Shown: positions 20,281-51,564 of the stretch, one piece after another | How the letters are laid out: each line of letters starts with the position of its first letter | Numbering within the stretch: position 1 is the first letter of the stretch | Source: Eubacteriales bacterium | Lineage (GTDB): Bacteria; Bacillota; Clostridia; Oscillospirales; CAG-272 | Direction of reading: 5' to 3' | Assembly: GCA_045589215.1 (NCBI GenBank) | Contig: JAZNOQ010000085.1 | Location: 4,348-68,347 of the forward strand | DNA length: 64,000 bases | Made by a program: the position numbers and the translations under genes | The notes under the pieces: model-generated | What the model saw: the letters and a program-made list of their open reading frames with translations, nothing else | Told to the model about the DNA's origin: nothing | The model's database searches: none

Positions 20281-20309
20281 TTGACATTTTGGGCATTGTG
20301 TGGTATGAT
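20281..20309 (+). promoter_or_regulatory. sigma-A promoter of the giant SBP/permease operon
   Basis: TTGACA, a 17-nt spacer, then TGg-TATGAT, leaving a ~195-nt leader. Confidence 0.65.
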
Positions 20310-20369
20310 ATCAACATCAATATTAGGGCAAAATGCGGTCTATGCCGCGTCGACAGCGGCGCTTGAAAT

Positions 20370-20408
20370 CCGGGAGTGTTCCTCTCGGGTTTCATTTTCG
20401 TCTGTTTT
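20370..20408 (+). promoter_or_regulatory. terminator-like hairpin inside the operon leader (candidate attenuator)
   Basis: CCGGGAG-uguuc-CUCUCGG followed by GUUUCAUUUUCGUCUGUUUU. Flanking hairpins are GCCGC-gucgaca-GCGGC (20343-20359) and CCCGAA..UUCGGG (20410-20434). Confidence 0.45.
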
Positions 20409-20504: not shown

Positions 20505-23500
20505 ATGAAAAAGACGAAATTACAGCGCTTGATAGCTTTGCTTCTTGCGGCGGTATTTCTGATCTGCGGCGGTACCATAACCGTCGGCGCAACGGATGGA
20601 GGTGGATCGGAGGACGGCTCCTCGGGCAACTCGTCTACCACAACCGTTACGACTGCCGACATTAAGGCACTGCTGAATTCGATGACGTACGACGAGTACG
20701 TTGCGGCTTATTTTGACACGGTTCCCCGTGCAGAGGGAGAGCCTATTGTCATAAACGGCGTCGATTACGACCCCGAGCAGACCAACATAGGGTTTGACGA
20801 CGGCTCGGATGGCGTTTTTGACGACAGCTGTATCTCGGTCCGCGAATACCTTGGCGTTAAAGGGCTTTATACGCCCGGCAACGGCATCGTATCCTGGAAG
20901 ATCGATCAAATAACGAAGAAGACTCGTTATTCGATCAGCATTGAGTACTACCCGATCGAGAATAAGTCTGCTTCCATTGAACGTGTGTTCTACATCAACG
21001 GCTCGGTTCCGTTTAAGGAGGCGCGTTACCTGACCCTTTCAAAGGTTTGGAGAAATGCTTACCCGAACGGCTCGTTTGTCCTTGCAAAGGGTGAGAGCGA
21101 TGCGGATGGAGCGGCATACGTAAGCGCGGCGGCTGAAATCGGGATCAAGGCGAGCTACGACGCCGAGACGAGAACGGTATCATATGAGATGCCCGCATAT
21201 TGGACGCAGGATATTTCGGACCTCGCCAACGAGAAGCAGCTTCGCTTCTTCAAGAACGATATTGACAAAAACGAGATCAGACCCACCATCGAGCAGGTGC
21301 CCGAATGGCGTTCCTACGAGATGAGTGACTCGAACGGCTATTATACCGAGTCCTTTGAGTTCATCGTCGAGCCGAACAAGAACGGTGAGGTGATCCTCTC
21401 GCTCGAGGGCGTGAACGAGCCTATGGTGATCAAGAGCATTACGCTCTTTGCTCACGAGGATAACGTTTCGTACGAGCAATATCTGAAGGATCTCGGCGAC
21501 AAGGCTACCGCTTCGGGTCAGGATAAGATCAAGATCGAGGGCGAGGAGCTGCTTGCGGCTTCCTCCAAGACCATTTACGCGATCAACGATAACTCCTGCG
21601 CGATCAACTCTCCCACCGACACCACCCGTACGGTACTCAACACCATCGGCGGCGAAAAGTGGCAAACGGCAGGTCAGTGGGTGCGCTACGGCTTTGCGGT
21701 GCAGACCGCGGGTATGTACGACATCGCGATCCGTTACCGTCAGAACGTCCTCGACGGTCTGTATACGTCGCGTTCTCTTTCGATCTCTTCCTATTATAAA
21801 GGTGCGAACGGCGAGCTCGTTCGGTACGATAAAGCTACATATCTTGCACAGCACGGAAACACCGCAGGCTTCTATGACGGTGTTCCGTTCGACGAGGCTG
21901 CGAGACTTCAGTTCTCTTACGACCAGGATTGGCAATCGACCTTCCTAACCGCAGATGTTGACGGAGACAAGAACCTGCCGATCTACTTCGAGGATGGCGT
22001 CGTGTATATGATGGAGATCGAGGTCACCATCGGTGAGATGGGCGAGATCGTTCGTGAGGTCCAGGAAACGCTTGATGTTATCAATGACTGCTATCTGAAC
22101 ATTCTCCAGCTGACCGGTACGAACCCTGACGAATACCGCGACTACGGATTCTCGCGTATTATGCCCGATACCATCAACCAGATGGAGATGGCGGCGCAGA
22201 GACTTGCGGGGCCGAACTCCGACGGTGAGGGCGGTATTGTTAAGGCACTTGAGAACATTTCGGGCGAGGCGAGCTCGATGACCGCAACTCTGGAGCGTGT
22301 GGCATGGCTCCTCCACCGTATGACGGATGAGGATAACATCGCATCGAACCTCGGTCAGCTTAAGACCTATATCGGTACGCTCGGTACTTGGCTTGGCGAT
22401 GCAAAGACCCAGCCCCTTCAGCTTGACTACCTCGTGGTTCAGCCCACGAACGGAAAGCTGCCTAAGGCGACTCCGAACTTCTTTAAGACGATGGCTCATG
22501 AGTTCTCGAGCTTCTTCCAGAGCTTCATTCGAAATTACGACCGTATGGGCGCAACCGTTGAAGCTACCGATGCCGCGACCGAGGTATGGCTTGCATATGG
22601 CCGTGACCAGTCTCAGGTCATCCGTAATCTGATCAACAACGATTTTACTCCCAATAAGGAGGAGTTCGGCGATAAGGACGGCAACGAGATCATCGTTGAC
22701 CTGAAACTTGTCGCAGGCGGCACGCTCCTTCCGTCTATCCTTTCGGGTGCGGGTCCTGATGTTTATATCGGACTTGGCGAGGATAACGTAATCAACTACG
22801 CGATCCGCGGTGCACTCATTGCGATCGAAAATATGGAAGGCTTCAATGAAATGTGCCTCCAGGAATATGAGGACGAAAACGGTAATATTGTCGACAACTC
22901 GAAGAACGCACAGTTCAATGAGGCGGCAATGATCGTTATGGGCATTGAGGACGCTAAGGGGGATATGCATTACTACGGTCTCCCCGAGACGCAGGGCTTC
23001 AGTATGATGTTCGTGCGTGAGGATATCCTTGCTGACCTTGATATCGATATTCCCCGTACGTGGGATGACATCTACGCCGCGATCCCCACGCTTCAGGCGA
23101 ACAACATGCAGATCGGTGTACAGAACGACTACAAGATCTTCCTGTACCAGATGGGCGGCGAGCTCTTTGCGGATAACGGTATGAGAATCAATCTTGATTC
23201 CAACGTTGCGCTGACCTCGTTCAATATGATGTGTAATCTCTTTACACAGTACGGCTTCCCCTATAAGTACGACTTTGCAAACCGTTTCAGAACCGGTGAG
23301 ATGCCGATCGGCTTTGCAAGCTACACGGGTACCTACAACCACCTGAAGGTCTTCGCGACTGAGATCGAGGGCTTGTGGGGCTTCTACCCGCTTCCCGGTA
23401 TGATCAAGACCGACGAGAAGGGAAATGAGATCTATGACGAGAACGGTGATCCCGTGATCAACAACGTTGCGGTCTCTGCTTGCTCTGCGATCGTTATGAT

Positions 23501-24149
23501 CGTCGGATGCGACAACGAGTACAACGCATGGCAGTTTATGAGATGGCACGTAGGTGCTGATTGTCAGGCGACATACTCGGAGGAGATGTGTGCGATCATC
23601 GGTCCTTCCGCAAAGCACTCTACCGCAAACCTCCAGGCACTTGCAGATATGCCTTGGACCTCCGAGGAGCTTCTGCAGCTCGGAACGCAGTTCAACAATC
23701 TCGCATCTATCCCGAACTACCCCGGTTCCTACATCATCGGCCGTTACACCAACTTCGCATTCCTCTCGGCGTATAATAGCTCGGCAGACCCTACCGAGGA
23801 GCTGCTCTCCTATATCACCACGATCAACAAGGAGATCACGCGTAAGCGTGAGGAGTTTGAGCTTGAAACGCTCGAGATCGGTCAGACCCTCGCCGAAAAG
23901 AGGATCGGAGAGGCAGAGGCTGCTCTTAAAGCACTTCGCGAATCCGACTCTTGGAGCGCAAGCTACGATGCTCTTTATGAAAGATCGCTCGGAAGCTACG
24001 GTCTCCTCCATCAGACACAAGAAGACTACGCCGCACTCTTTGCTCTTGCTTCCGACTTTAAGACCGCAAACGCGACTCTGTTCGAGGAAGTCGTTGAGTG
24101 CATCAATGAGGCCGCTACGGCACTGAAGACTTACGAGGCTTATAAATAA
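20505..24149 (+). CDS. giant extracellular solute-binding protein: signal peptide + two CBM/beta-sandwich-like segments + helical module + family-1 (CUT1) SBP domain + helical C-terminal tail
   Basis: AGGAGGG RBS and a signal peptide (LIALLLAAVFLICGG..VGA|TD). A CBM6/35-like stretch is present (KIEGEELL...GQWVRYGFAVQTAGMYDIAIRYRQ). SBP-like blocks are EVWLAYGRDQ, LLPSILSGAGPDVYIG and WGFYPLPG. Confidence 0.75.
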   Translation: MKKTKLQRLIALLLAAVFLICGGTITVGATDGGGSEDGSSGNSSTTTVTTADIKALLNSMTYDEYVAAYFDTVPRAEGEPIVINGVDYDPEQTNIGFDDGSDGVFDDSCISVREYLGVKGLYTPGNGIVSWKIDQITKKTRYSISIEYYPIENKSASIERVFYINGSVPFKEARYLTLSKVWRNAYPNGSFVLAKGESDADGAAYVSAAAEIGIKASYDAETRTVSYEMPAYWTQDISDLANEKQLRFFKNDIDKNEIRPTIEQVPEWRSYEMSDSNGYYTESFEFIVEPNKNGEVILSLEGVNEPMVIKSITLFAHEDNVSYEQYLKDLGDKATASGQDKIKIEGEELLAASSKTIYAINDNSCAINSPTDTTRTVLNTIGGEKWQTAGQWVRYGFAVQTAGMYDIAIRYRQNVLDGLYTSRSLSISSYYKGANGELVRYDKATYLAQHGNTAGFYDGVPFDEAARLQFSYDQDWQSTFLTADVDGDKNLPIYFEDGVVYMMEIEVTIGEMGEIVREVQETLDVINDCYLNILQLTGTNPDEYRDYGFSRIMPDTINQMEMAAQRLAGPNSDGEGGIVKALENISGEASSMTATLERVAWLLHRMTDEDNIASNLGQLKTYIGTLGTWLGDAKTQPLQLDYLVVQPTNGKLPKATPNFFKTMAHEFSSFFQSFIRNYDRMGATVEATDAATEVWLAYGRDQSQVIRNLINNDFTPNKEEFGDKDGNEIIVDLKLVAGGTLLPSILSGAGPDVYIGLGEDNVINYAIRGALIAIENMEGFNEMCLQEYEDENGNIVDNSKNAQFNEAAMIVMGIEDAKGDMHYYGLPETQGFSMMFVREDILADLDIDIPRTWDDIYAAIPTLQANNMQIGVQNDYKIFLYQMGGELFADNGMRINLDSNVALTSFNMMCNLFTQYGFPYKYDFANRFRTGEMPIGFASYTGTYNHLKVFATEIEGLWGFYPLPGMIKTDEKGNEIYDENGDPVINNVAVSACSAIVMIVGCDNEYNAWQFMRWHVGADCQATYSEEMCAIIGPSAKHSTANLQALADMPWTSEELLQLGTQFNNLASIPNYPGSYIIGRYTNFAFLSAYNSSADPTEELLSYITTINKEITRKREEFELETLEIGQTLAEKRIGEAEAALKALRESDSWSASYDALYERSLGSYGLLHQTQEDYAALFALASDFKTANATLFEEVVECINEAATALKTYEAYK

Positions 24150-24290: not shown

Positions 24291-25238
24291 ATGCCTACAA
24301 AAGTGAAACAGAAACAAGCTGTTTCCAGAAAGGACATGACGAAAGCGCAATGGATCTGGAAGGAAATGAAGCGCAATAAGGTCGGCTACGCAATGATCGC
24401 CCCCTTTATGCTCGTTTTCACGCTTTTCACCGTTGTGCCGGTCGCATTGTCCATTTATTACAGCTTTACAGACTTTAACCTGCTCGAGACAGCCCAGTGG
24501 CGAGGAATTGAAAACTACATTCGTCTGTTCCTTGACGATGACATCTTCCTCATATGTGTGAAGAACACGTTTATGTTCGCGGTGGTCGTAGGCCCCGCGT
24601 CCTACCTGATTTCCTTCCTCGTCGCATGGTTCATCAACGAGCTTTCTCCGATCGTTCGTTCGATCGTTACCCTGATTTTCTACGCTCCGTCCATTGCGGG
24701 TCAGGTTTACCTGATTTGGGGTACTCTTTTCTCGAGTGACTCCTACGGATGGGTCAATGCAACACTATTGAATATGGGTATGATCAGTGAACCGATCGCC
24801 TTCTTCGAGGATGAGGACTACGTTATGCCGCTTTGTATCGTGGTCTCTCTTTGGACGTCACTCGGTACTGCGTTCCTGTCGTTTATCGCAGGTCTGCAGG
24901 GTATTGATCACTCGCTGTACGAGGCGGGTGCCGTCGACGGTGTCAAGAACCGTTGGCAGGAGCTGTGGTACATTACGCTTCCTACGATGAGACCGCAGCT
25001 GATGTTCGGTGCGATCATGGCGATCACGAACTCCTTCGGATTTGGCGGTATCGTTACCGCGCTGTGCGGATTCCCGTCGGTTAACTACTGTGCGCATACG
25101 ATCATGCACCATCTTGAGGACTATGGCGGACAACGCTTTGAGATCGGTTATTCTTCCACCATTGCTGTCGTCTTGTTCGTTATCATGATCGGTGCGAACA
25201 TGCTCGTCAAGAAAGTGCTTTCTAAGGTGGGTAAGTAA
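24291..25238 (+). CDS. carbohydrate ABC transporter permease (MalF-like), pair 1
   Basis: Six TM helices and an EAA loop (YEAGAVDGVKNRWQELWYITLPTMRP). Good RBS. Confidence 0.9.
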   Translation: MPTKVKQKQAVSRKDMTKAQWIWKEMKRNKVGYAMIAPFMLVFTLFTVVPVALSIYYSFTDFNLLETAQWRGIENYIRLFLDDDIFLICVKNTFMFAVVVGPASYLISFLVAWFINELSPIVRSIVTLIFYAPSIAGQVYLIWGTLFSSDSYGWVNATLLNMGMISEPIAFFEDEDYVMPLCIVVSLWTSLGTAFLSFIAGLQGIDHSLYEAGAVDGVKNRWQELWYITLPTMRPQLMFGAIMAITNSFGFGGIVTALCGFPSVNYCAHTIMHHLEDYGGQRFEIGYSSTIAVVLFVIMIGANMLVKKVLSKVGK

Positions 25239-25239
25239 T

Positions 25240-26112
25240 ATGGCAAAGTTAAGAACAAGAAGACACAAGGTCGTCCTTGCCCGCTCACGAGGCGGTGATG
25301 CGGCGATATCGGTTATCCTTGTAATTTTGGGCGCGTTCATGTTCCTCCCGATGTATTACGTCGTGATACAGTCCTTTAAGCCCCTTGATGAGCTTTGGAT
25401 GTTCCCGCCCCGATTCTACGTAATCAATATGACCCCTAAGAACTACACGGATCTCTTTACATTGATGAGCACCTCGTGGGTTCCGTTCTCGCGTTACATT
25501 TTCAATACTGTTCTGACCTCGGTAGCAGGTACGTTCGGTAACCTGTTCTCGGCATCTCTTGCGGCATACGCAATTTCCAAGATCAAGTTCCCGGGACGAA
25601 AGTTTACGTTTAAGCTCGTCCGTACCTCGCTGATGTTCCACTCGACCGTTACCGGTATCACGTCCTTTATGATTATGTCGAGTCTTAAGCTCGTCGATAC
25701 ATATTGGGCGCTGATCCTTCCGGCACTCGGTTATAAGCTCGGCCTTTACCTGATGAAGCAGTTTATGGACACCAACGTTCCCAACACGGTCCTTGAAAGT
25801 GCCCGTCTCGACGGCTCGGGAGAATTGCGGACCTTCTGGGTCATTGCAATGCCTATGGTTAAGCCCGCATGGCTGACACTGATCATCTACTGCTTCGAGG
25901 ATCTGTGGAATAGAGGCTCTTCGACCTATATTCATTCGGAGCAGCTCAAATCGTTTAACTACGCAATCGGTCAGATCATGGCAGGCGGTATCAAACGTGC
26001 AGGTGCGCATGCCGCTTCCACGGTCATTATGATGCTCGTCCCGATCGCGGTATTCGTTATTACCCAGTCGAACGTCATCGAAACGATGGGCTCCTCGGGC
26101 ATGAAGGATTAA
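25240..26112 (+). CDS. carbohydrate ABC transporter permease (MalG-like), pair 1
   Basis: The ATG lies 1 nt after the upstream stop. EAA loop is ESARLDGSGELRTFWVIAMPMVKPA. Confidence 0.9.
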   Translation: MAKLRTRRHKVVLARSRGGDAAISVILVILGAFMFLPMYYVVIQSFKPLDELWMFPPRFYVINMTPKNYTDLFTLMSTSWVPFSRYIFNTVLTSVAGTFGNLFSASLAAYAISKIKFPGRKFTFKLVRTSLMFHSTVTGITSFMIMSSLKLVDTYWALILPALGYKLGLYLMKQFMDTNVPNTVLESARLDGSGELRTFWVIAMPMVKPAWLTLIIYCFEDLWNRGSSTYIHSEQLKSFNYAIGQIMAGGIKRAGAHAASTVIMMLVPIAVFVITQSNVIETMGSSGMKD

Positions 26113-26130: not shown

Positions 26131-28266
26131 ATGAAAAAGAAAATAATTGCACTCCTGTTTGCGCTTGTGTTTGCCTTGAGTGCACTTGCTCTTCCTGCGA
26201 GCGCTGCATCGCCGTATCAGACCTATACGTATTCGATCAACGGTACTCCGTTGCATTCTCCTGATGCGTATACTCCGATCAAGGTAATGGATTCCGACAC
26301 CATGGGCCTCGAGCTCGTGATGAAAAATCCGACCGACCTTGTCGTTGACGACGATCTGAATATCTATATCGCGGATAGAGATAACAACAGAATCCTTGTA
26401 AACGACCGCTACGGAAAGAATAAGTTCATCATCGAGACCTTTATCAACGAAGATGGTGTCCCCGATGAGCTTACGCATCCGCAGGGACTCTTCGTCACCG
26501 AAGATAAGATCTACGTTTGCGATACCGAAGCAGCTCGAATCGTAACCTTCGACCTAGAAGGTAATTTCCTTTCGGTTATTCCTGCCCCTGAAAGCGCACT
26601 GTTTGACGAGGGCTCGATCTATTCGCCGATCGCGATCGCGGTCGATAAGTACGACAGACTCTTTGTCGTTTCGCGTGACACCTATCAGGGTATCATCGTT
26701 ATGACGAGTGACGGTATGTTTACCGGATTTATCGGTGCACAGGCGGTCTCGCTTACCTTTTGGGAGATGATGATCCGTCGATTCCAAACCGATGAGCAGA
26801 GAGCACAGAGTGTTCTCAACGTCTCGGTTTCCTACAATAACATCGCCGTTACCGAAGAGGGCTTCGTTTACGCGACCACCTCTTACATCGACGAGGCTAA
26901 AGTACAGTCCTTCATTAAGAGTAAGTCGAGTAGCGGTAAATATTCGCCGGTTAAGCTCCTGAATGCAAAGGGCGACGAGATCATGAAGCGTAACGGCTTC
27001 TGGCCGCCTGCCGGTGAGGTCGATATGACCAGAGCGTCCTCTGCCGATACAATTAGCGGTCCTTCGACCGTTATAGACGTCGCGGTCGGACCTCAGAAGA
27101 CCTGGTCGATCGTCGACTCCAAGCGAAACAAAATCTTTACCTATGACTTTAACGGTAACCTTCTTTATGCCTTTGGCGATACCGGTCAGCAGATCGGTAG
27201 CCTTATGAGCGTCACGTCGATCGTTTATCAGGGAGACACGATGCTCGTGCTCGACAAATCGAACTGTACCATTACGGTATATGAGCGAACCGAGTACGGC
27301 GATATTCTGATCGATGCGATCACAAACCAGAACGCACAGCTCTATGATAGTGCTGTTGCCGACTGGACGGAGATCCTGAAGCGTAACTCCAACTTTGACG
27401 CCGCTTACGTCGGCATCGGTAATGCGCTGTACCGTGACGGTGCTTTTGAGGAATCTTTGGCATATTACAGAGCTGCTTACGATACCACGAACTATTCGAA
27501 GGCGTATCAGGAGATCCGTAAGGAATGGATCTCCGATTGGATCATCCTTCTTCCGATCGTTGTCGTTGTGGCAGTAGTCCTGTGGGTACTGCTGATGCGT
27601 TACGCCAAGAAGGTCAACGGAAGAGCGGCAGTTACCGGAGGAAAGCGCACCTTCAAGGAGGAGCTTCTGTATTGCTTCCACACGATGTTCCATCCGTTCG
27701 ACGGTTATTGGGATCTGAAGCACGAAAAGCGCGGCTCGATTCGGGCATCCCTCGTGTTTATCGGTATCACGATCCTTGCGTTCTATTATCAGAATATCGG
27801 TACGGGTTATATCAGCAATCCCAGAGAGAACTATTCGTCCTTCGTTGCACAGATCACGGGCGTTCTGCTCCCGCTGTTCCTGTTTGTCATCGGCAACTGG
27901 TGTCTTACCACGCTGTTTGAGGGCGAGGGCAGCATGAAGGATATCTTCATCGCAACCGCCTACTCTCTTGTACCGCTTCCCTTTTTCATCGTTCTTTCTA
28001 CGATGTTCTCAAACGTGGCACTCAAGGCAGAGCTTGATATGGTCAATATGCTCGTTACCGTTGCGTTTATCTGGGTCGGTCTCCTGCTCTTCTTCGGCGT
28101 CATGACCGTCCACGACTATTCGCTCGGAAAGAACGTCCTGACAATCATCGGAACACTTGCAGCGATGATCTTCATTATGTTTATCGCACTTCTGTTCACA
28201 ACGCTTCTCAGTAAGGTTATCGGCCTTATCTCGAATATCATCACCGAAATCAGCTATCGCTTATAA
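26131..28266 (+). CDS. secreted NHL-repeat beta-propeller / TPR-like linker / C-terminal Yip1-domain polytopic membrane protein
   Basis: Signal peptide (ALSALALPASA|AS). Repeated NHL-like blades are present (LNIYIADRDNNRILV, KIYVCDTEAARIVTFD, RLFVVSRDTYQGIIVM, KIFTYDFNGNLLYAFG). A TPR-like helix pair (GNALYRDGAFEESLAYYRAAYD) is followed by about 6 TM helices resembling Yip1. Confidence 0.65.
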   Translation: MKKKIIALLFALVFALSALALPASAASPYQTYTYSINGTPLHSPDAYTPIKVMDSDTMGLELVMKNPTDLVVDDDLNIYIADRDNNRILVNDRYGKNKFIIETFINEDGVPDELTHPQGLFVTEDKIYVCDTEAARIVTFDLEGNFLSVIPAPESALFDEGSIYSPIAIAVDKYDRLFVVSRDTYQGIIVMTSDGMFTGFIGAQAVSLTFWEMMIRRFQTDEQRAQSVLNVSVSYNNIAVTEEGFVYATTSYIDEAKVQSFIKSKSSSGKYSPVKLLNAKGDEIMKRNGFWPPAGEVDMTRASSADTISGPSTVIDVAVGPQKTWSIVDSKRNKIFTYDFNGNLLYAFGDTGQQIGSLMSVTSIVYQGDTMLVLDKSNCTITVYERTEYGDILIDAITNQNAQLYDSAVADWTEILKRNSNFDAAYVGIGNALYRDGAFEESLAYYRAAYDTTNYSKAYQEIRKEWISDWIILLPIVVVVAVVLWVLLMRYAKKVNGRAAVTGGKRTFKEELLYCFHTMFHPFDGYWDLKHEKRGSIRASLVFIGITILAFYYQNIGTGYISNPRENYSSFVAQITGVLLPLFLFVIGNWCLTTLFEGEGSMKDIFIATAYSLVPLPFFIVLSTMFSNVALKAELDMVNMLVTVAFIWVGLLLFFGVMTVHDYSLGKNVLTIIGTLAAMIFIMFIALLFTTLLSKVIGLISNIITEISYRL

Positions 28267-28289: not shown

Positions 28290-31200
28290 ATGAAATTCAG
28301 AAGAATAATTTCAATGTTCCTGGCCGTATTGTTTGTGATCGGTACGTGCTCGGTGACGATCGGTGCAGCCGATACGTCCACGGGAACATCGAATTCGTCC
28401 TCCTCCGGTACTGTTGCGGAGAAGGTAACGTATAGCTATTACACCAACAGTAGTCCAAACCCTGAGGATGCTACCGTCCAGTATTTCGTTGATAAGGATC
28501 TCGAATGGACGGAGGCGAAGGTGTTTGACACTCCGAACGAAAAGCTCCAAACGATGGATCTTCGTCTTCAGCAGAACGGATATCAGCTGTATGTAGACGA
28601 ATACTCGGGTGAGGTGGCTTGCAGAAACCTTACCACCGAGGAGATCCTCTTCACGAACCCTTATAATATCGGTGCTTCTACGGCAAAGGGCAATCAGCTG
28701 TACGAGCTAATGTCGCAGATCCTCGTTGAGTATACCGATAAATCGACCGGCGTTACGACGACCTTCACCAGCTTTAAGGAAACCTCGGTCAGAGGTCAGC
28801 TCAAGGTGAAGAACATCAAGAACGGTCTCCGTGTTGAATATACCGTCGGTCGTGAGGAAGCGAAGATGCTCGTTCCGAGACTGATCGAAAAGACCCGCTT
28901 TGAAACCAAGATCCAGTCCGTGCTCGAAGAGGCACTTGTTGCCGAGGGTGAAGTCGGTCGTCTTAAGATCAATAAGGTCGTAAAGTGGTATAAGCTTTAC
29001 GATATCTCGCAGGCGACCAACGACATTGAATACGACTCGATGATCGCGATTGTTCCGATCGCAAGAGAGATGCCGGTATACAGTATCGACGAGTCTGTAA
29101 CCTCGGTTCAGCTTGCCGCGATCGAAATGCTCATCAAGACCTACGCATCCTCGTACACCTACGAGGATCTGGATTACGACCACGAGCTCACCGAATACGA
29201 GGGCGAGGAACAGAACCCGCCGCTCTTTAAGATGGCGCTTGAGTACATCATTTCGGACGAGGGACTTACCGTTACGCTTCCCGCAAACGGTCTCCGTTTC
29301 GACGAGTCTCGTTACACGCTTGAAAACATCTCCGTCCTGCCCTATATGGGTGCAGGTATGTCGCCCAACGAAGGTTATACCTTCTTCCCGGACGGCTCCG
29401 GTGCGCTCTTCGACTTTGAGGAGCTGCGTCAGCTGTCCTCGACCAGCATCAGCGGCCAGGTTTACGGCGTTGACTACGCATATCAGACCATTGCGGCGAC
29501 CCACCAGGAGACCATTCGCTATCCTGTATTCGGCGTCGTAGAGGTTCAGCAGCTCGAGAAGCTTGCTCCTGACCTTTCGATCCGGGAATATGAGCAGGAT
29601 CGCGGTTTCGTTGCGATCATTACTGAGGGTGACTCGATGGCAAAGCTTACCTCCGTACACGGCGGTAAGACGACGCACGAATATCACTCGGTCAAAATGA
29701 CCTACTACCCGCGTCCGAAGGACTCCTACAACCTGAAGGATGCGCTTTCGTCGACTTCTAACGGTAGCGGCGCTATGTGGGAAGTCGTTTCCTCGAGAAA
29801 GTACACCGGCAACTATACCGTGAAGTACGTAATGCTGACCGATACCGACGTCGCAGAGCAGATACAGCACGATATGGGTGAGGGAGAGACCTTTGATTAC
29901 TACGAATGCTCCTATATGGGTATGGCATCGGCGTATCGCGATTATCTCCTCGATACCGGCGTTCTGACTCCCCTTACGGAAGAGGATATCAGCGACGATA
30001 TCCCGCTTTACATCAATACCTTCGGTGCGATCGAGACGACTCAGAAGATCATGTCGATCCCCGTTGATGTAACCGTTGCTTTGACCTCCTTCAAGGACGT
30101 TGCGGAAATGTACGCACAGCTCGAGAAGGTTGGCATTACCAATGTAAACTTCAAGCTTACGGGTTACTCAAACGGCGGTATGTACGCGACTGTTCCGTAT
30201 TACCTCGATTGGGAAAAGGCCGTCGGCGGTGACAACGGCTTTGAGGCACTCCTCGACGACGCAAACAAGAAGGGCTATAAGGTCTTCCCGGACTTTGACT
30301 TCGTTTACGTTTCCGAAACCGGAATGATCGACGGTCTCGCACTTCGTAAACACGTCGTTAAGAGTATCGACAACCGTTACACCAGCCGTCGTGAATACTC
30401 TGCGACCAAGCAGGCGTTTGTCAGCTACTTCGAACTTTGTATCTCGCCCGCTTACTACGATCACTTCTACGAGAAGCTCACGACGAACTATCTGAAGCAC
30501 TTCGAAGATACCGATTATAACACCTCGATCTCGATCGGAACGCTCGGCTCCGAGCTGAACTCGGACTTCGATGAAGACGATCCGTTTAACCGTGAGGACT
30601 CGAAGCAGTCTACGATCAAGGCGTTTAAGTATTTCGACGAGAATTACGATTACGTAATGACCAATGGCGGTAACGCTTATACTTGGAAGTACGTAGATTA
30701 CATTCTCGATGTGCCGCTTGATTCGAGCCGCTTCATCAGAGCAAGCGCGTCGGTTCCCTTTATGGGTATCGTTCTCCACGGATATGTTCAGTTCTCCGGA
30801 ACGCCTATCAATATGGAGGGTAATCTCAATTACGCATTCCTGAAGGCGATCGAGAACGGTGCTTCCGTAAACTTCGTTCTTTCTTATCAGAATACGACTA
30901 CGCTGAAGAATGATATGCGTCTCAGCAAGTATTATTCGATTCGTTACGATATCTGGTTCGATGACGTTGTAACGATCTACAATAACCTGAATTCGCTCCT
31001 TTCTGACGTACAGCTTGAGACCATCGTTGATCACGAATTTATCGACGCACTTCGTGTTGCCGATCTTGACGAGGCAAAGAATGATCTCGACGCGGCGATC
31101 CTCGATTCGATCGAGGCAGAGCGTGAGGCTCTTGATAAGCAGAAGCTCGAAGAAATACAGACCATTCTGAATGCACGTCAGCTGATCCGTATCAACAGCG

Positions 31201-33017
31201 CGGCTGTTACCGCAGAGCTTGAAAAGCTGATGGGATACAAGGAATCGCTTATTTTGAAGCTCGGCTATGTCGAGAACGAGGATGGTGTTTCCTACACCAG
31301 CGGTGAGCTTGCACTTGCGATCAATAACTTTAACGCCGCAGTTCAGAATTATATCAAGGTTTACAACGGCGGTGACTGTGGTGCCAATGAGACCACGGGA
31401 ACCTCCGCAATTCTGGGTGACGCAGCCCGTGCGATGAACAATGCGGCGGCAGAGCTGCAGAAGTTCTACGATCAGGCGCAGAACGGTTCGGTCAACTATA
31501 TTGCCAACCAGGCGTATACCGCTGAGCTTGCAGCACGCGAGGCATATGAGAATGCAATCGCGGCATACGAAATCCTCGCTGCTACATCTGCAGTTTCGGA
31601 TTACATCAGAGAGCTCGCATGGGGACTTGTCGAGGATACCGCTGAGGCGGTAGCGACCATCGGCTCGATCGCGCCCAGCGTTTACGAAATGGCACAGGAC
31701 GCATACGATTATGCGATCAGCGGTGCCGCAACTCTGACCGATGCGAACGGTGATGCGATCTGCGAGATCAGCACCTATCAGTTCTACCTCTACGCACTTT
31801 GCGGTTACCTCGGTGTACAGCCGACCGTAAAGATCGATCCGAAGAACGTGCTTCGTTGCTATGAGATCGGCCTCATTAAGAGCGATCTTACGGCAAAGGC
31901 AGCGCTTGATCAGATCTGCAATATCTTGAAGATTGAGGACGCAACGGTTGCTCCTGATTATGCGGCTCTCTTTGCAGGCTATCTGAGCAAGTCCGGTCAG
32001 GTCGGATTTGAAACCAGATACAACACCTTCGCCGAAAGATGGCAGGAATATCAGGAGATCTACGAGCGATATAAGAACAAGAAGGCGACCTCGATTGATC
32101 TCGCGAATGCTCTGACTCCTTTGATGAATGCTGCAATTTACCTCAACACCGAATTCGGCTATTTCGTCGATCTGTTTGAGGCTTCGCCCAAGTCTGCGAA
32201 CAGCATCATTACCTTCTACGAGAATTCGCTTGATCTTCAGGCTCAGGCGAATGCCTTCTCGGCTGCATTTGCGGCTTGCTATGCTGCGGAAAATCCGTCC
32301 TCGGCACAGCTGAAGACGCTTGCCGATGCGGCGAAGATGCTCTCTGCATCCTTCGATACGATTTCCGACGATTATGCGATCGTTCCGAGCGATTCCGCAA
32401 CCGGTATCAACTCGTATGCTAAGAATGCCGAAAAGCATATGACGGTTCTTAAGAACGCTATGGAGACTGCGAAGTCGGTGCTTGCAACGCTTCAGAGGAC
32501 CCCGATCGCCGAGGGTGAAGAGGGCTATGCAGAGCGTCAGGCAGCGATCGCTTTGGCCCTTGAATACGTTCAGTATACCGAACGCAATTACAACGAAGTT
32601 GAAGCGGCTGCTAACGAGGTTGTTGATCTTGCGGAGAAGGCTTACGAAGAAGCTTCGAAGATCGATGAGGTTGTGAAGTACTGCAAGGCGGTCGAAGAGG
32701 TGACCTTTGCTGCAGAGGAGGATGAACGCCTTCTCGACGTGGCTCCCAAGTTCATCGAGCTTCTCCATCCGTACGATTATATCGCTCCGGAGGTAGAGGA
32801 GGAGATCCTTGAGGATGAGGAAGAGGTATATAACAAGTACAGCTCGGATAAGAACAGTGTCGTGCTTGTAACCTATTCGAACGGAACCAGATTCCTGTTG
32901 AATTATTGCAACTATGCAATCGTGGTGGAAATCGACGGAGTTTCTTACCGCGTGGAATCTCAGAGCTATCAAAAGATTCCCGTGGTGGAAAGTGAGGTAG
33001 AAGACAATGACCAGTGA
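28290..33017 (+). CDS. 1575-aa secreted DUF5696-like protein (putative glycan-processing TIM-barrel core) with ~600-aa Ala-rich all-helical C-terminal extension
   Basis: Signal peptide (FLAVLFVIGTCSVTIGA|AD). The core has FPDGSGALFDF, TGYSNGGMY..WEKAVGG, FPDFDFVYV, IGTLGSELNSDF and VPFMGIVLHGY. Residues ~900-1500 are Ala/Glu/Leu-rich helices, followed by a small terminal beta domain. The DUF5696 label is from memory. Confidence 0.55.
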   Translation: MKFRRIISMFLAVLFVIGTCSVTIGAADTSTGTSNSSSSGTVAEKVTYSYYTNSSPNPEDATVQYFVDKDLEWTEAKVFDTPNEKLQTMDLRLQQNGYQLYVDEYSGEVACRNLTTEEILFTNPYNIGASTAKGNQLYELMSQILVEYTDKSTGVTTTFTSFKETSVRGQLKVKNIKNGLRVEYTVGREEAKMLVPRLIEKTRFETKIQSVLEEALVAEGEVGRLKINKVVKWYKLYDISQATNDIEYDSMIAIVPIAREMPVYSIDESVTSVQLAAIEMLIKTYASSYTYEDLDYDHELTEYEGEEQNPPLFKMALEYIISDEGLTVTLPANGLRFDESRYTLENISVLPYMGAGMSPNEGYTFFPDGSGALFDFEELRQLSSTSISGQVYGVDYAYQTIAATHQETIRYPVFGVVEVQQLEKLAPDLSIREYEQDRGFVAIITEGDSMAKLTSVHGGKTTHEYHSVKMTYYPRPKDSYNLKDALSSTSNGSGAMWEVVSSRKYTGNYTVKYVMLTDTDVAEQIQHDMGEGETFDYYECSYMGMASAYRDYLLDTGVLTPLTEEDISDDIPLYINTFGAIETTQKIMSIPVDVTVALTSFKDVAEMYAQLEKVGITNVNFKLTGYSNGGMYATVPYYLDWEKAVGGDNGFEALLDDANKKGYKVFPDFDFVYVSETGMIDGLALRKHVVKSIDNRYTSRREYSATKQAFVSYFELCISPAYYDHFYEKLTTNYLKHFEDTDYNTSISIGTLGSELNSDFDEDDPFNREDSKQSTIKAFKYFDENYDYVMTNGGNAYTWKYVDYILDVPLDSSRFIRASASVPFMGIVLHGYVQFSGTPINMEGNLNYAFLKAIENGASVNFVLSYQNTTTLKNDMRLSKYYSIRYDIWFDDVVTIYNNLNSLLSDVQLETIVDHEFIDALRVADLDEAKNDLDAAILDSIEAEREALDKQKLEEIQTILNARQLIRINSAAVTAELEKLMGYKESLILKLGYVENEDGVSYTSGELALAINNFNAAVQNYIKVYNGGDCGANETTGTSAILGDAARAMNNAAAELQKFYDQAQNGSVNYIANQAYTAELAAREAYENAIAAYEILAATSAVSDYIRELAWGLVEDTAEAVATIGSIAPSVYEMAQDAYDYAISGAATLTDANGDAICEISTYQFYLYALCGYLGVQPTVKIDPKNVLRCYEIGLIKSDLTAKAALDQICNILKIEDATVAPDYAALFAGYLSKSGQVGFETRYNTFAERWQEYQEIYERYKNKKATSIDLANALTPLMNAAIYLNTEFGYFVDLFEASPKSANSIITFYENSLDLQAQANAFSAAFAACYAAENPSSAQLKTLADAAKMLSASFDTISDDYAIVPSDSATGINSYAKNAEKHMTVLKNAMETAKSVLATLQRTPIAEGEEGYAERQAAIALALEYVQYTERNYNEVEAAANEVVDLAEKAYEEASKIDEVVKYCKAVEEVTFAAEEDERLLDVAPKFIELLHPYDYIAPEVEEEILEDEEEVYNKYSSDKNSVVLVTYSNGTRFLLNYCNYAIVVEIDGVSYRVESQSYQKIPVVESEVEDNDQ

Positions 33018-33969
33018 TATGAATCTTCAAAATACCGTAAGCACTCCGAAGTCGGGGAAGAAGAAAAAGGCTTCTTCCCTGAACGCCCGGAAGGCTCGCG
33101 CAGGTTGGTGGTTCGTTGCCCCCTTTATCGTGGGCTTTGTCCTGATCTATCTGCCGATCCTTATTGAGTCGATCACCTATACCTTCTGCGAGGTTACAAC
33201 TCTCGGCCCCGGTGAATTCGAAACGAAATTCGTCGGCTTCGAGAACTATCAGAATGCATTCTTGGTGGATGCGAAATTCGTTCCCACCCTGCTCGGGGGT
33301 CTGCAGACCCTTGCGCTGAATATCCCGATGATCGTTATTTTCTCACTCTTTATGGCGGTCATTCTCAACCAGAAGATGGTCGGTCGTACCTTCTTCCGTG
33401 CAGTATTCTTTATCCCCGTCGTTCTTTCGGTCGGTATTCTTGAGAACCTTGACCCGAACTTCGACCCCGGTGCCGACGGTATTTCGGACGGCTCGGGAGA
33501 GAATGCGACTGAGGACCTAGTCTCTGCATTTGACCTTGCAATGCTCTTCCAGAGTATGAAGATCGGGGAACAGCTTGTTCAGATCGTTGTTGATGCGATC
33601 AACGGCGTTCAGGAGATCATCAGCCGTTCGGGCGTACAGTTCCTGATCTTCTTGACCGGTCTGCAGTCGATCTCGCCTGCGATCTACGAGTCGTGTCAGA
33701 TCGACGGCGCGACCTCTTGGGAGACCTTCTGGAAGATCACTCTGCCGATGATATCACCGATGATCCTTGTTAATGCGATCTATACCGTCATTGACAGCTT
33801 TACGGTGAATAACGTAGTCATGGACTATGTTCTGAATTACAGCGCGAACGTTACGGATGGTATTGCTTCGGCAATGGCTTGGTCGTACGTCTTGATCGTT
33901 GTCGGAATCATTGGAATTGTGGCACTTCTGCTCAAGGGCTTTGTCTTCTATCAGAAGCGTGATGCATAA
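33007..33969 (+). CDS. carbohydrate ABC transporter permease (MalF-like), pair 2
   Basis: The start overlaps the upstream stop by 11 nt. EAA loop is YESCQIDGATSWETFWKITLPMISP. Confidence 0.85.
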   Translation: MTSDMNLQNTVSTPKSGKKKKASSLNARKARAGWWFVAPFIVGFVLIYLPILIESITYTFCEVTTLGPGEFETKFVGFENYQNAFLVDAKFVPTLLGGLQTLALNIPMIVIFSLFMAVILNQKMVGRTFFRAVFFIPVVLSVGILENLDPNFDPGADGISDGSGENATEDLVSAFDLAMLFQSMKIGEQLVQIVVDAINGVQEIISRSGVQFLIFLTGLQSISPAIYESCQIDGATSWETFWKITLPMISPMILVNAIYTVIDSFTVNNVVMDYVLNYSANVTDGIASAMAWSYVLIVVGIIGIVALLLKGFVFYQKRDA

Positions 33970-33987: not shown

Positions 33988-35106
33988 ATGAATCAAGAAA
34001 CGATGCCAAAGGTTAAAAAAGAAACGAAAAATAAAATTCGCGTTGAATTTGACAGAACTCCGCTGAAAGAGCGTCTGATGTCAAAGTTTCTCAGCCTGTT
34101 CTTTCTGAAGAAGGTTGTGTGGTATATTTTTCGTCTCGTCCTTCTGATTGGTATTGCATACGTAATCCTTTCTCCCTTCCTCACGATGCTTATGAGATCC
34201 TTCATGAGCCTCGACGATCTTGCTGACCCCACGGTCATGCTGATCCCGAAGCATTGGAACGTCAGGATATATAAGGAAGTCTGGACACAGAACGGATATC
34301 TTGAGGCCTTTGTCAATACCTTCATCCTCTCCGGCAGTACGGCGTTGATCCAGACGTTCGTCTGCTGTCTGATCGGATACGGTCTTGCAAAGTTCAAGTT
34401 CAAGGGCAACAAGCTGATCTTTTTCGCAGTCATCTTTACGATGATCGTTCCGCATCAGGCTCTTTACAGCTCAATGCACATCAATTTCTCCTCCTTTGAC
34501 GTTTTTGGAATCTTCCAATTCCTGAACGGAGGCGGAATCGATCTGTTCGGTATCACGACGATCAACAACAGCTTCTTCGAGATGATCGATATTTTCCCGG
34601 ACACCGATGCTTTTAATAAGGTGTTCCAGAAAAACGGTCTGAACTTGATCGGCTCGGACATCCCGATTTATCTGCTTTCGTTTACCGGACTTGCGTTTAA
34701 GAACGGTCTGTATATCTTTATGCTTCGTCAGTTCTATCAGGGCGTTCCGGATGAGCTTGAGGAATCGGCATATATGGATGGATCGGGTACCTTCCGAACC
34801 TTCATACAGATCATTCTGCCGCTGTCGATCCCGATGATGATCACGGTGTTCATTTTCGCGTTCTGCTGGCAGTGGACGGATGACTTCTATGCGCAGGCAT
34901 TCAATCCGACGAATAAGAGCCTGCTGATGGATGATGTCATTCAACCTCCGGTTACAATGTCCATAGAGGTTGCGGAGAACCCGGACTATAAGACCGTTAT
35001 CAACAATACGGCGGGTCTGATGGTGCTTGCACCGCTTTTGATCCTTTACTGCGCGGGACAGAAGTTCCTCGTACAGGGTATCGAAAGCTCCGGTCTTGCA
35101 AACTGA
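33988..35106 (+). CDS. carbohydrate ABC transporter permease (MalG-like, extended), pair 2
   Basis: GGAAAGGAGG RBS and EAA loop EESAYMDGSGTFRTFIQIILPLSIPM. At 372 aa it is longer than usual. Confidence 0.85.
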   Translation: MNQETMPKVKKETKNKIRVEFDRTPLKERLMSKFLSLFFLKKVVWYIFRLVLLIGIAYVILSPFLTMLMRSFMSLDDLADPTVMLIPKHWNVRIYKEVWTQNGYLEAFVNTFILSGSTALIQTFVCCLIGYGLAKFKFKGNKLIFFAVIFTMIVPHQALYSSMHINFSSFDVFGIFQFLNGGGIDLFGITTINNSFFEMIDIFPDTDAFNKVFQKNGLNLIGSDIPIYLLSFTGLAFKNGLYIFMLRQFYQGVPDELEESAYMDGSGTFRTFIQIILPLSIPMMITVFIFAFCWQWTDDFYAQAFNPTNKSLLMDDVIQPPVTMSIEVAENPDYKTVINNTAGLMVLAPLLILYCAGQKFLVQGIESSGLAN

Positions 35107-35141: not shown

Positions 35142-35175
35142 GGGGGCTATCTCAACGAGGTAGCCCCCCTTTTTC
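35142..35175 (+). terminator. intrinsic terminator ending the seven-gene operon
   Basis: GGGGGCTAT-ctcaacgag-GTAGCCCCCC followed by TTTTT. Confidence 0.85.
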
Positions 35176-35176
35176 C

Positions 35177-35230
35177 AAAAACAAAAGAGCCATCGACGAC
35201 CGGCTTGCACGCCGTATCCGATGGCTCTCT
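35177..35230 (-). terminator. intrinsic terminator of the GDPD gene
   Basis: On the minus strand, the stem AGAGCCATCG...CGATGGCTCT is followed by TTTTGTTTTT. Confidence 0.7.
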
Positions 35231-35250
35231 TTGGTTTTGTTACGGTTATT

Positions 35251-35973
35251 TTATTCGAGAATGTTCGAGGTAATGTAATCTATGCCCCAAGCGATCAGAT
35301 CTTCGGCATTTTCAAGCTGATCCACCGTCCAGCAATTGACGCGAATGCCGTTTTCGTGGCAGAGTGCGATCTTTTCTGCATCGAGTGCCTTGTAATGAAT
35401 ATCAAGGTCGAGATCTTGTGCCTTGAGTCGGTCGATCAGATCCTCGGAAAATTTTTTGGTGATAAACTGTGCCGCTTGTGTGGGATATTTCTTACGGAGA
35501 AATACCAGATTTTCATAGCAAGACGAAATAAAGATCGTTTTGTCGAGATAGCCGAGTTCGTCGATGATCCTGCAGATCTCATAGATATCCTCTTCGAAAA
35601 ATGCTTTTTTCAGCTCAAGTACTGCATACTTTTCGTAATATTTGCAGACGTTGATGTATTCCTCCAGATTGGGCATACGAAGGTCGATGCGTCCTCTTTT
35701 GCCCTCCTTGTCGGTGAGGGGAAGCGCACGAAGGGTATCGTACGTGGTTTCCTCGACAACCATGTTGTCGATCGCAACGCGAGCGGTGGTATCATCGTGG
35801 AAGAGAATGTACTTTCCGTCGCCGGTCTTTTGGATGTCGGTCTCGATGCCGTAATAGGAACGGTTACCTGCCGCAACGAATGCGGGCATGGTGTTTTCCT
35901 TCTCAAGTCCGCTGCAGCCGCGATGTGCGACCATCAGGGTCTTTCCTTTGTTTTTTATGTGGATGGTATCCAT
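35251..35973 (-). CDS. glycerophosphodiester phosphodiesterase (GDPD family)
   Basis: MVAHRGCSGLEKENTMPAF and IETDIQKTGDGKYILFHDD signatures. GGAGGAA RBS. Confidence 0.85.
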   Translation of the reverse strand: MDTIHIKNKGKTLMVAHRGCSGLEKENTMPAFVAAGNRSYYGIETDIQKTGDGKYILFHDDTTARVAIDNMVVEETTYDTLRALPLTDKEGKRGRIDLRMPNLEEYINVCKYYEKYAVLELKKAFFEEDIYEICRIIDELGYLDKTIFISSCYENLVFLRKKYPTQAAQFITKKFSEDLIDRLKAQDLDLDIHYKALDAEKIALCHENGIRVNCWTVDQLENAEDLIAWGIDYITSNILE

Positions 35974-36024
35974 GGCGTGATTCCTCCGAGCGGTTGCAGA
36001 TATGATTTGCGGAAAACGCAGTGA

Positions 36025-39845: not shown

Positions 39846-40088
39846 GCGGCACTCTCCTTTCCAATCTGCGGGACAAACATATATAATGTAGTATAGCACA
39901 AATCAGAGCTTCTGTCAAGGCAGGGGATAAATGTAAAAAACTTGAGCTTGCTTTGATTTTTTGAAAAATAATGAGCCATAATTCATATAGGGTTCACATA
40001 TTTTTTATATAATGACTTTGAATAGGTTGTGTACGCGAATTGCCGTGCAGAGTTAGATATAGAGTTAGACAGAAAGGTTTCAACAGGT

Positions 40089-50700: not shown

Positions 50701-51564
50701 CTATAATTCCTCTCGTGCGGCGCGGCGGAAATCCGACGGAGATGCTCCGACGGTGCGGCTGAAGAGGCGCGTGAAGTAATACGGCGAAGAGAACCCGACG
50801 GCGTAAGAGATCTCCGAGATCGAAAGCGGAGTGCTGCGTAAAAGCTCCTGCGCCTTCCCGATGCGAACGTTTTGGATAAATGCGGTCACACTCTGTCCTG
50901 CGTGGCGGCGGAATACACGCGCCGCATACTGCGGGGAGATGCTCATTTCCTCACTGAGCGACGAGAGGGAGAGGGGCTCGGGATAGTGCGCTTCGATGTA
51001 GTCGCGCATTGCGAGATAAGTGTTTTTGCTTTTGGGGGCAGGGGATTCCTCTGTCGGTACGGTGTAATTTTCGCTCAGCAGGAGCATGATGCGAAGAAGG
51101 GCGAGATCAAGCCGCGTTTTATCGAAGGTGTGCGAGCACGGAGCGTGACGAAGCGCGGATACGGCAAGATGCTCGACCTGCTCGCGCGACGCATTGATCG
51201 GCGTTGCGGAAGGCAGGAAAAATCCCGTTTCGCGCGGCTGAAGCTGTCCGATGAGCGGATGAGAGTCGGATTTCGTAAAATACAGCTTGTCTTCTTCCGT
51301 TCGGGACATCGTAAAGTGAAAATAGCAGTAATCGCAGTCCTCGACGGCACAGACCGAGTAGGCCGTATCCTCTTCGAGGAGAACAGCGGTTCCCGCGGGA
51401 AGCGAAACGTTTTGGGGGCCGAGTGAAAAACGCAGAATTCCGCTGAAAACATAGTAAAGCGCAGGCCTTTTCAGCCTTCTGCCTTGCTTCTGCCAGCCTG
51501 TTTCGTATTTCATACGCCCTGCGATGAGGGTTTGGGGGAGGGAATCGAGAGAAAAGATCGGCAT
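50701..51564 (-). CDS. AraC-family transcriptional regulator (cupin + HTH)
   Basis: C-terminal AraC HTH (ISEISYAVGFSSPYYFTRLFSRTVGASPSDFRR). The start is set at the ATG at 51564 after an AAAGGAGA RBS. Confidence 0.8.
   Translation of the reverse strand: MPIFSLDSLPQTLIAGRMKYETGWQKQGRRLKRPALYYVFSGILRFSLGPQNVSLPAGTAVLLEEDTAYSVCAVEDCDYCYFHFTMSRTEEDKLYFTKSDSHPLIGQLQPRETGFFLPSATPINASREQVEHLAVSALRHAPCSHTFDKTRLDLALLRIMLLLSENYTVPTEESPAPKSKNTYLAMRDYIEAHYPEPLSLSSLSEEMSISPQYAARVFRRHAGQSVTAFIQNVRIGKAQELLRSTPLSISEISYAVGFSSPYYFTRLFSRTVGASPSDFRRAAREEL

Follow-up and report, generated by a model that had tools for sequence, protein, structure and literature searches.

What is a Yip1-type membrane protein with a large extracellular propeller doing in the middle of a sugar-importer operon? 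The question is posed by an open reading frame (ORF) at positions 26131-28266 (+) of a 64-kb window of DNA, by which we mean the whole stretch of 64,000 nucleotides analysed here, taken from contig JAZNOQ010000085.1 (assembly GCA_045589215.1) of a Eubacteriales bacterium. The ORF, referred to below as gene 4, is the fourth of seven closely spaced plus-strand genes that encode, in order, a binding protein, permeases A and B, the NHL-Yip1 protein itself, a DUF5696 protein and permeases C and D. From its place within this seven-gene cassette gene 4 very probably encodes an accessory part of the uptake machine, and we propose with moderate confidence that its product is an accessory subunit of a dual CUT1-type ATP-binding cassette (ABC) importer and not an enzyme. 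A more specific version of this proposal, in which the propeller and the TPR-like region dock the DUF5696 protein, is put forward only tentatively. The family is already present in public databases, where its members are named by domain, and the sequence itself is therefore not new; the cassette, and what its NHL-Yip1 component does, seem not to have been described before.

Results

Gene 4 is a real gene of 711 codons with an ATG eight bases past the sequence AAGGAGG, and the possibility of a chance ORF was rejected because the protein has thousands of homologues. More than 3400 clusters (90% identity) in the protein database, with lengths of 705-750 amino acids (aa), share the fused Yip1, TPR and NHL architecture, which places that architecture far beyond chance. 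Their sources are in every case uncultured Clostridia, Eubacteriales or Oscillospiraceae, and those that carry a name are labelled "YIP1 family protein"; the window's own NHL-Yip1 protein is already in NCBI.

The protein begins with a cleavable signal peptide (aa 1-25, 26131..26205; hydropathy peak at aa 5-23 and a ...PASA/AS site), which is followed by an extracellular six-bladed NHL beta-propeller (aa 29-386, 26215..27288) supported by Pfam, by sequence matches in the PDB, by an AlphaFold2 (AF2) model and by Foldseek. Two TPR-like helical hairpins come next, outside the cell and close to the membrane (aa 387-466, 27289..27528; TPR_16, PDB matches and AF2 helices), and lead into a first transmembrane (TM) helix, TM1 (aa 467-490, 27529..27600; AF2, and hydropathy with a span of aa 468-489). 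A basic cytoplasmic loop with 11 Lys or Arg residues (aa 491-536, 27601..27738; aa 490-536 by hydropathy) ends in HPFDG(F/Y)WDLKHEKRGS and is followed by a five-TM Yip1 domain (aa 537-711, 27739..28263) recognised by Pfam, hydropathy and AF2. All of these features lie on the plus strand.

A preliminary description of this DNA, made without database searches, had read the translation as a signal peptide, about six NHL-like blades, a TPR-like helix pair and about six TM helices, and each of these elements is recovered by Pfam, AF2, Foldseek or hydropathy. The NHL motifs that it quoted, IYIADRDNNRILV and IYVCDTEAARIVTFD, lie at aa 78-90 and aa 127-141, respectively. Profile searches with both of the domain models on which its reading depended gave significant matches: Yip1 (PF04893) matches aa 517-684 with E=3e-14 and 53.7 bits (cut-off 28.6), covering profile positions 2-171 of 173, and NHL (PF01436) matches with E=1.1e-10 and 41.4 bits (cut-off 20), the single repeat that passes alone being aa 66-90. 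Divergent relatives of the protein likewise match PF04893. The TPR assignment fared less evenly, as the TPR_16 match (E=6.7e-6) remains below its cut-off (26.9 against 32.7 bits), while consensus TPR proteins among the PDB sequences match aa 405-451 with phmmer (E 4e-5), the predicted model contains paired helices (388-401, 405-418, 423-435, 439-448 and 452-470) and most homologues carry precomputed TPR_1, TPR_2 or TPR_16 matches. The safe wording for aa 387-466 is TPR-like.

The AF2 model of gene 4 was built on 75 homologues and has a mean predicted local distance difference test score (pLDDT) of 80 and a predicted template modelling score (pTM) of 0.64. It places beta strands between aa 31 and 386, five helices between aa 388 and 470 and six long helices between aa 473 and 710, with a drop in confidence at aa 205-310 (pLDDT 50-75) that includes a helical insertion of lower confidence within the propeller (approximately aa 205-265). 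Foldseek matched the beta region to TRIM71 (E=1e-16, TM-score on target of about 0.8, about 340 aligned columns) and also to Thin, Brat and Pizza6, the E-values of this group, TRIM71 included, ranging from 1e-16 to 1e-11. For TRIM71, Thin and Brat they lie between 1e-16 and 1e-13, with a similar TM-score and alignment length throughout. Among PDB sequences, phmmer matched the protein to NHL domains from Thin, TRIM71, NHLRC2 and PknD (E 7e-11 to 4e-6). Hydropathy combined with the positive-inside rule gives five hydrophobic segments at aa 537-690 after the basic loop, with which the AF2 helices agree. The predicted topology therefore has the propeller and TPR-like region outside, and the Yip1 domain with its N-terminus in and its C-terminus out. 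Two other classifications of the protein were weighed and discarded. It is not taken for a surface protein held by a lipid anchor or by sortase, since there is no lipobox or LPXTG motif and six TM helices are predicted, nor for a classical sensor kinase or signalling protein, since there is no cytoplasmic output domain.

The cassette in which gene 4 resides is strongly conserved. The same seven-gene order on one strand was found in 39 of 39 genome loci (46-86% identity) and in 79 of 80 metagenome loci, in both sets as far as the contigs reach. The metagenome loci were the best 80 matches to a divergent Yip1 alignment; all are of the fused type at 51-63% identity and should be read as replicates and not as diversity. 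The order is also kept in loci where the Yip1 part is only 33-45% identical (L040-42, L044, L045, L049 from Anaerotaenia torta, L050, L131 and L132). Beyond the cassette the neighbourhood varies, with a ribosomal-protein operon in L045, IF3/L35/L20 genes in L132, GxGYxYP and CBM6 proteins in L040, and glycoside hydrolase (GH) genes of families GH43, GH5 and GH106 together with AraC or LacI regulators in A. torta. Homologues situated mostly outside transporter contexts had been named beforehand as an observation that would count against a transport role; what we found is the same cassette in essentially every locus examined.

A search with the membrane part of gene 4 (aa 471-711) against 1.8 billion cluster representatives returned 1629 clusters (50% identity) at E<=1e-3, of which 183 reached E<=1e-30. 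The matches are a mixture of fused proteins of approximately 700 aa, with identities down to 31%, and stand-alone Yip1 proteins of approximately 205-220 aa (33-39% identity). The stand-alone Yip1 genes occupy the same cassette, directly after a separate gene of approximately 480-516 aa that encodes the NHL, TPR-like and TM1 parts. The split point falls just after TM1, and the split Yip1 gene starts with the cytoplasmic motif FHPFDGFWDIKHEKRGS. This arrangement, with products of about 500 and about 207 aa, occurs in Lachnospiraceae and Clostridiaceae genomes and in the cultured A. torta, which has two copies. This fusion or fission of adjacent genes provides direct evidence of a joint function for the two modules, and we lean towards reading gene 4 as the fused form of a two-module subunit, composed of an NHL-TPR-TM1 module and a five-TM Yip1 module.

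We analysed conservation across 91 fused representatives with 28-51% identity. In the propeller, each blade has one Asp that is conserved in at least 90%, and the other positions at this level are Gly, Pro and aromatic residues, which is the structural NHL pattern, and no conserved His/Glu/Asn metal-binding set of the kind found in catalytic propellers was seen. This result bears on whether gene 4 could be a membrane-anchored enzyme. Catalytic six-bladed propellers include SMP-30/gluconolactonase, paraoxonase and virginiamycin B lyase, and a propeller of the lactonase, lyase or esterase type could modify a glycan, or strip a substituent from it, before import while the Yip1 domain served as a mere anchor. 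Weak or sub-threshold SGL and Arylesterase matches in some relatives, and virginiamycin B lyase among the fold matches (E=5e-10), are consistent with such an enzyme, but the top hits, by structure as well as by sequence, are NHL domains without catalytic function, and the metal-binding set is missing from the conserved propeller positions. In addition, one TM helix would be enough for an anchor, yet the five-TM Yip1 domain is at least as conserved as the propeller. We consider an enzymatic role quite unlikely.

Among 20-residue windows, conservation along the protein peaks at two motifs of the Yip1 module that face the cytoplasm. The first, HPFDGxWDLKHEKRGS, lies directly before the first Yip1 helix and gives the top window (conservation 0.73); H17, P18, G21 and G31 of this basic-loop motif are invariant in alignment A4. 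The second, NWCLTTLxxGEGS, lies at the cytoplasmic end of the second Yip1 helix. Polar residues are also conserved in or at the ends of the TM helices (N589, W590, T593, E634, H661 and Y663), and these would suit a channel or transporter role for the Yip1 domain itself, with an ion, a small solute or a lipid-linked molecule as its cargo, alongside the ABC importers. To our knowledge, transport activity is known for no Yip1 protein. A channel has been the subject of speculation for prokaryotic Yip1 homologues by the authors of a review of the YIPF family (PMC6682643), but YknW, the bacterial Yip1 member that has been studied, is an assembly-modulating accessory subunit, and the four co-occurring permeases already provide two complete cores, so that there is no obvious need for another pore. 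We regard this explanation as very improbable. Compared with the motifs listed in the same review (PMC6682643), the third Yip1 helix of gene 4 contains TAYSLVP, which fits the YIPF pattern phi-phi-G-Y-x-phi-phi-P with Ala in place of Gly, and the YIPF motif D-L/F-x-G/I-P that precedes the first helix is present in a partial form, WDLKHEKRGS.

We next consider which cassette components change together. For each component a matrix of pairwise protein distances was computed, and the matrices were correlated over 60 complete cassettes with 500 bootstraps of loci. Two blocks emerged. The binding protein co-varies with permeases A and B (r about 0.90); these are the partners expected to be cognate, so that the first block provides an internal positive control. 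The second block unites DUF5696, permeases C and D and the NHL propeller, DUF5696 correlating with the other members at r 0.84-0.92. For the propeller itself the correlation is highest with DUF5696 (r 0.92, partial r 0.44), followed by permease C (0.89), the binding protein (0.84) and permeases A and B (0.76-0.80), the immediate upstream neighbour, permease B, standing at 0.76. This order of preference was reversed in none of the 500 bootstraps. The TPR and Yip1 parts of gene 4 showed no preference for either block.

These correlations also bear on the idea that gene 4 is a sensor or gate, in which the propeller would sense the glycan or the loaded binding protein and the Yip1 motifs would switch the ATPase or the permeases. 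That the two cytoplasmic motifs are the most conserved parts of the family would suit such a role, as would the presence of the PknD sensor domain among the sequence matches and the lack of a dedicated regulator near the window operon. The propeller, however, co-varies with DUF5696 rather than with the binding protein, the cytoplasmic side of gene 4 offers short loops only and no output domain, and ordinary AraC or LacI regulators adjoin some of the split-type cassettes. On this evidence a sensor or gate is unlikely.

The co-variation directs attention to the DUF5696 protein (gene 5, 28290..33017 (+), 1575 aa), which is secreted and matches Pfam DUF5696 with E=3e-133. It consists of an N-domain and a (beta/alpha)8 barrel, an Ala-rich helical insertion of approximately 600 aa and a conserved C-terminal beta module. 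No solved relative was detectable by sequence, no Pfam GH family matched the protein at E<=0.01, and a relaxed Pfam search of the C-terminal 655 aa gave nothing meaningful. The AF2 model of aa 40-960, built on a homologue alignment of limited diversity, has a pLDDT of 77 and a pTM of 0.74. Over about 870 columns, Foldseek matched this model to two GH129 enzymes, the 3,6-anhydro-D-galactosidase of Zobellia (5opq; E=5e-23) and the alpha-N-acetylgalactosaminidase NagBb of Bifidobacterium bifidum (5wzp; E=9e-18), with GH31 and GH101 enzymes ranking next. By these matches the predicted DUF5696 structure has the fold of a retaining alpha-glycosidase superfamily. Four acidic residues are invariant (D368, D395, E769 and E855 in full-length numbering).

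A plain Sec signal peptide without a lipobox is present in 104 of 120 DUF5696 proteins, and neither an LPXTG-type sortase motif nor a C-terminal TM helix was seen in the termini inspected (those of the window protein and seven distant relatives). Since most of these proteins thus lack a lipobox, and LPXTG motifs and C-terminal TM helices were not seen, some means of surface retention would be needed. The window protein is considerably longer than its counterparts in distant cassettes (1575 aa versus 850-910 aa in L040:8673-11315, L049:10670-13285 and L132:10638-13184). The extra 600 aa or so form the Ala-rich helical stretch between the barrel and the C-terminal beta module, and that module (..TTYENG..VNYN..V..DG..) is kept in both the short and the long forms.

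The remaining genes of the operon are those of an importer. Gene 1 (20505..24149 (+)) encodes a giant extracellular solute-binding protein of 1214 aa with a signal peptide, an unannotated N-terminal region of approximately 700 aa, an SBP_bac_1/SBP_bac_8 domain (SBP_bac_1 at aa 731-1014) and a helical C-terminus. A relaxed Pfam search of its N-terminal 690 aa gave nothing meaningful, and its lipobox Cys varies across the family. Genes 2 and 3 encode CUT1-type permeases A (UgpA/MalF-like, 24291..25238 (+), EAA loop YEAGAVDG) and B (UgpE/MalG-like, 25192..26112 (+), EAA loop ESARLDG), while genes 6 and 7 encode CUT1-type permeases C (33007..33969 (+), EAA loop ESCQIDG) and D (33988..35106 (+), 372 aa with an insertion, EAA loop ESAYMDG). 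Each of the four was identified by BPD_transp_1 and NCBIfam matches, is UgpAE/MalFG-like (CUT1 sugar type in NCBIfam) and carries an EAA coupling loop, and the two pairs together give the operon two complete importer membrane cores. The listed GTG start of permease B, at 25192, overlaps permease A by 47 bases; a likelier start is the ATG at 25240 (MAKLRTRR...), one base past the permease A stop codon. The neighbours agree with the preliminary description: two BPD_transp_1 permeases lie on each side, and the two giant proteins are the SBP_bac_1 protein of 1214 aa and the DUF5696 protein of 1575 aa.

In window-type cassettes the two permease pairs have a single binding protein between them. In three split-type cassettes a second SBP_bac_1 protein of normal size (460-502 aa) is encoded directly after the second permease pair (L050:16667-18049, L131:15232-16740 and L132:15303-16745).

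There is no ABC ATPase gene in the operon, and the sole one in the 64-kb window encodes an ABC-F-type protein (45201-46802) located 10 kb away. In 68 of 70 long loci, a scan for Walker A and LSGG motifs found no ATPase ORF inside the cassette or up to 10 kb from it, and we assume that a shared ATPase gene elsewhere in the genome supplies this function. No membrane-fusion protein or FtsX gene occurs within the cassette. The preliminary description had picked out the two giant secreted proteins but overlooked both the glycosidase-like fold of DUF5696 and the lack of an ATPase gene in the operon.

Upstream of gene 1, a promoter-like site (TTGACA-17-TATGAT, 20281..20309 (+)) matches the consensus at 11 of 12 positions and has a TG extension; it is a consensus match only, and the number of such sites in the region is not above the shuffled expectation. 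Between this site and gene 1, the 5' leader contains a 13-bp hairpin followed by a T-run (20364..20394 (+)), a possible attenuator, and an Rfam scan of the leader, including this hairpin, found no riboswitch or other family match. The likely end of the operon is a strong intrinsic-terminator-like hairpin with a 12-bp stem and eight GC pairs followed by a T-run (35142..35168 (+)). The flanking genes are unrelated, with Mrp/NADH-dehydrogenase-type membrane subunits upstream and an aminotransferase downstream.

Several other ORFs of the window were recorded. Past the terminator, a 267-aa ORF (35221-36024 (+)) has no family match and an odd, Cys- and Phe-rich composition, and is overlapped by a 240-aa ORF on the opposite strand (35251-35973 (-)). 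A 772-aa ORF (37581-39899 (-)) has no Pfam or NCBIfam match but is found with 65% identity at the same relative position in L001. The protein encoded at 41847-43640 (+) unites metallo-beta-lactamase-like ODP, flavodoxin, flavin reductase and rubredoxin-like domains and resembles the flavo-diiron-type proteins, typical of anaerobes, that detoxify oxygen or NO. The region 50701-55771 may be another carbohydrate-related locus: it contains the genes of an AraC-type regulator (50701-51636 (-)) and, close by, of a DUF6259 protein of 666 aa (53771-55771 (+)), along with two ORFs that have no family match.

Discussion

The reading of gene 4 as part of the transport machine and not as an enzyme, which the preliminary description had proposed from the operon position, is favoured by the conserved synteny, the gene split between two modules, the lack of a catalytic residue set in the propeller and the co-variation of the propeller with DUF5696. 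We infer a physical association between gene 4 and the importer, a glycan as the substrate and, more tentatively, DUF5696 as the docking partner. In the mechanism that we propose, the Yip1 domain would pack against the TM domains of the permeases, by analogy with YknW in the YknWXYZ exporter, and the two conserved cytoplasmic motifs might contact the cytoplasmic face of the permeases or the shared ATPase. The propeller/TPR ectodomain would hold DUF5696, and possibly its glycan substrate, above the second translocon, through which the cleavage products would be captured and imported. The cassette would then be a self-contained glycan-uptake unit of gut and rumen Clostridia with an ATPase from elsewhere. 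We also count in favour of this proposal the GH43, GH5, GH106, CBM6 and GxGYxYP genes that flank the cassette in some genomes.

Several observations weigh against this proposal or parts of it. The co-variation is correlative and could reflect shared selection on extracellular, substrate-facing proteins. It could, less likely, reflect a shared recombination history, an account that fits poorly because the Yip1-coding DNA that lies between the propeller and DUF5696 shows no such preference. In some lineages (L040 and L044) DUF5696 has a lipobox, and a docking partner is therefore not needed there for retention at the surface. Both candidate Asp residues of the FPDFDF segment of DUF5696, at the presumed end of barrel strand beta-4, are replaced in two members, where the segment reads PNFNY in L035:12321-14777 and PSMNF in L044:912-3572, which means either that this is not the nucleophile position or that some DUF5696 members are not hydrolases; DUF5696 may thus not be an active hydrolase in every member. 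The sole exception among the 80 metagenome loci, L105 (1-14183), has permeases A and B with a 721-aa NHL-Yip1 protein but no DUF5696 or second permease pair, and its NHL-Yip1 gene is followed by guaA, polysaccharide deacetylase, subtilase and P-type ATPase genes. This locus may be a half cassette or an assembly chimera. Finally, the analogy with YknW is loose, since YknW partners a MacB-type exporter, which is another class of ABC transporter.

The cassette is carried by Clostridia of the gut and rumen, among them the Lachnospiraceae and Oscillospiraceae, groups with a major part in fibre degradation, and the family is very large. If gene 4 does organise a surface glycosidase and two translocons, it would represent a new way in which Gram-positive bacteria couple glycan cleavage to uptake. 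It is more speculative still, and on present evidence doubtful, that the cassette is an unrecognised Gram-positive machine for harvesting glycans at the cell surface, a counterpart of the Sus-like "utilisome" of Bacteroidetes, with the NHL-TPR-Yip1 protein as the organiser that physically joins the two ABC translocons, the GH129-like surface enzyme and the giant binding protein in one complex. Were that so, it would provide the first mechanistic role for a Yip1 domain, that of a membrane-embedded organiser of multi-subunit transporters, and could inform work on the eukaryotic YIPF proteins. A cultured carrier exists, and the cassette would offer a tractable bacterial system in which to study the molecular function of Yip1.

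Comparison with known systems

A literature search found no paper on DUF5696 or on NHL/Yip1 proteins in an ABC cassette of this kind, and Yip1, NHL and DUF components go unmentioned in a 2026 review that covers 124 characterised glycoside ABC transporters. The closest precedent for gene 4 is YknW of Bacillus subtilis, a Yip1-family accessory subunit that is required by the YknXYZ ABC exporter and modulates assembly of the complex, as far as the account in PMC4887032 goes (citing Yamada et al. 2012). Bacterial Yip1 proteins are therefore not quite as functionally uncharacterised as had been supposed at the outset, YknW being required by YknXYZ according to that account, and the statement in the YIPF review (PMC6682643) that prokaryotic Yip1 homologues had no reported function is not strictly so. 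Gene 4 resembles YknW, as described there, in being a bacterial Yip1 membrane protein encoded in an ABC-transporter operon, and would, after YknW, add a second bacterial Yip1 protein to those linked with an ABC transporter. The partners differ: those of YknW, in the same account, form a MacB-type exporter with the FtsX-type permease YknZ, the ATPase YknY and the membrane-fusion protein YknX, whereas those of gene 4 are type I CUT1 importer permeases and a binding protein, with the opposite direction of transport. YknW also lacks the NHL/TPR ectodomain of gene 4, a difference that we draw from the published description of YknW and not from its sequence.

The eukaryotic YIPF proteins (Yip1p, Yif1p and YIPF1-7) share with gene 4 the PF04893 domain and five TM helices with a cytoplasmic N-terminus and the C-terminus on the far side. 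Unlike them, gene 4 has no N-terminal cytoplasmic Rab-binding region and is fused to a large extracellular domain, and its context is an ABC importer operon rather than vesicle traffic. Eukaryotic Yip1 is defined functionally by its interaction with Rab/Ypt GTPases and with its partner Yif1, neither of which is present in bacteria.

PknD of Mycobacterium tuberculosis also displays a six-bladed NHL propeller outside the membrane on a TM helix (sequence match to gene 4 with E=4e-6), and the Pizza6 designs derived from its NHL domain match the predicted gene 4 fold with E of about 1e-12. Ligand sensing has been suggested as the role of this NHL domain in PknD. The output of PknD is a cytoplasmic Ser/Thr kinase; gene 4 lacks an enzymatic output domain and carries a Yip1 membrane domain instead. 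For DUF5696, the nearest known structures are the GH129 enzymes, with which it shares the predicted arrangement of an N-domain and a (beta/alpha)8 fold (TM-score on target of about 0.65) at a sequence identity of only about 10%.

The cassette as a whole most resembles the CUT1 importers of Firmicutes in having MalFG/UgpAE-like permease pairs, an SBP_bac_1 binding protein and no ATPase gene in the operon. Several CUT1 systems are known to share one ATPase, such as MsmX in B. subtilis and MsmK in Streptococcus pneumoniae. Unlike the known CUT1 importers, the cassette has two permease pairs, an obligatory DUF5696 protein and an obligatory NHL/Yip1 protein, and its binding protein, at 950-1200 aa, has a large extra N-terminal region. 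We rate the cassette as a binding-protein-dependent sugar importer with unprecedented obligatory extra components.

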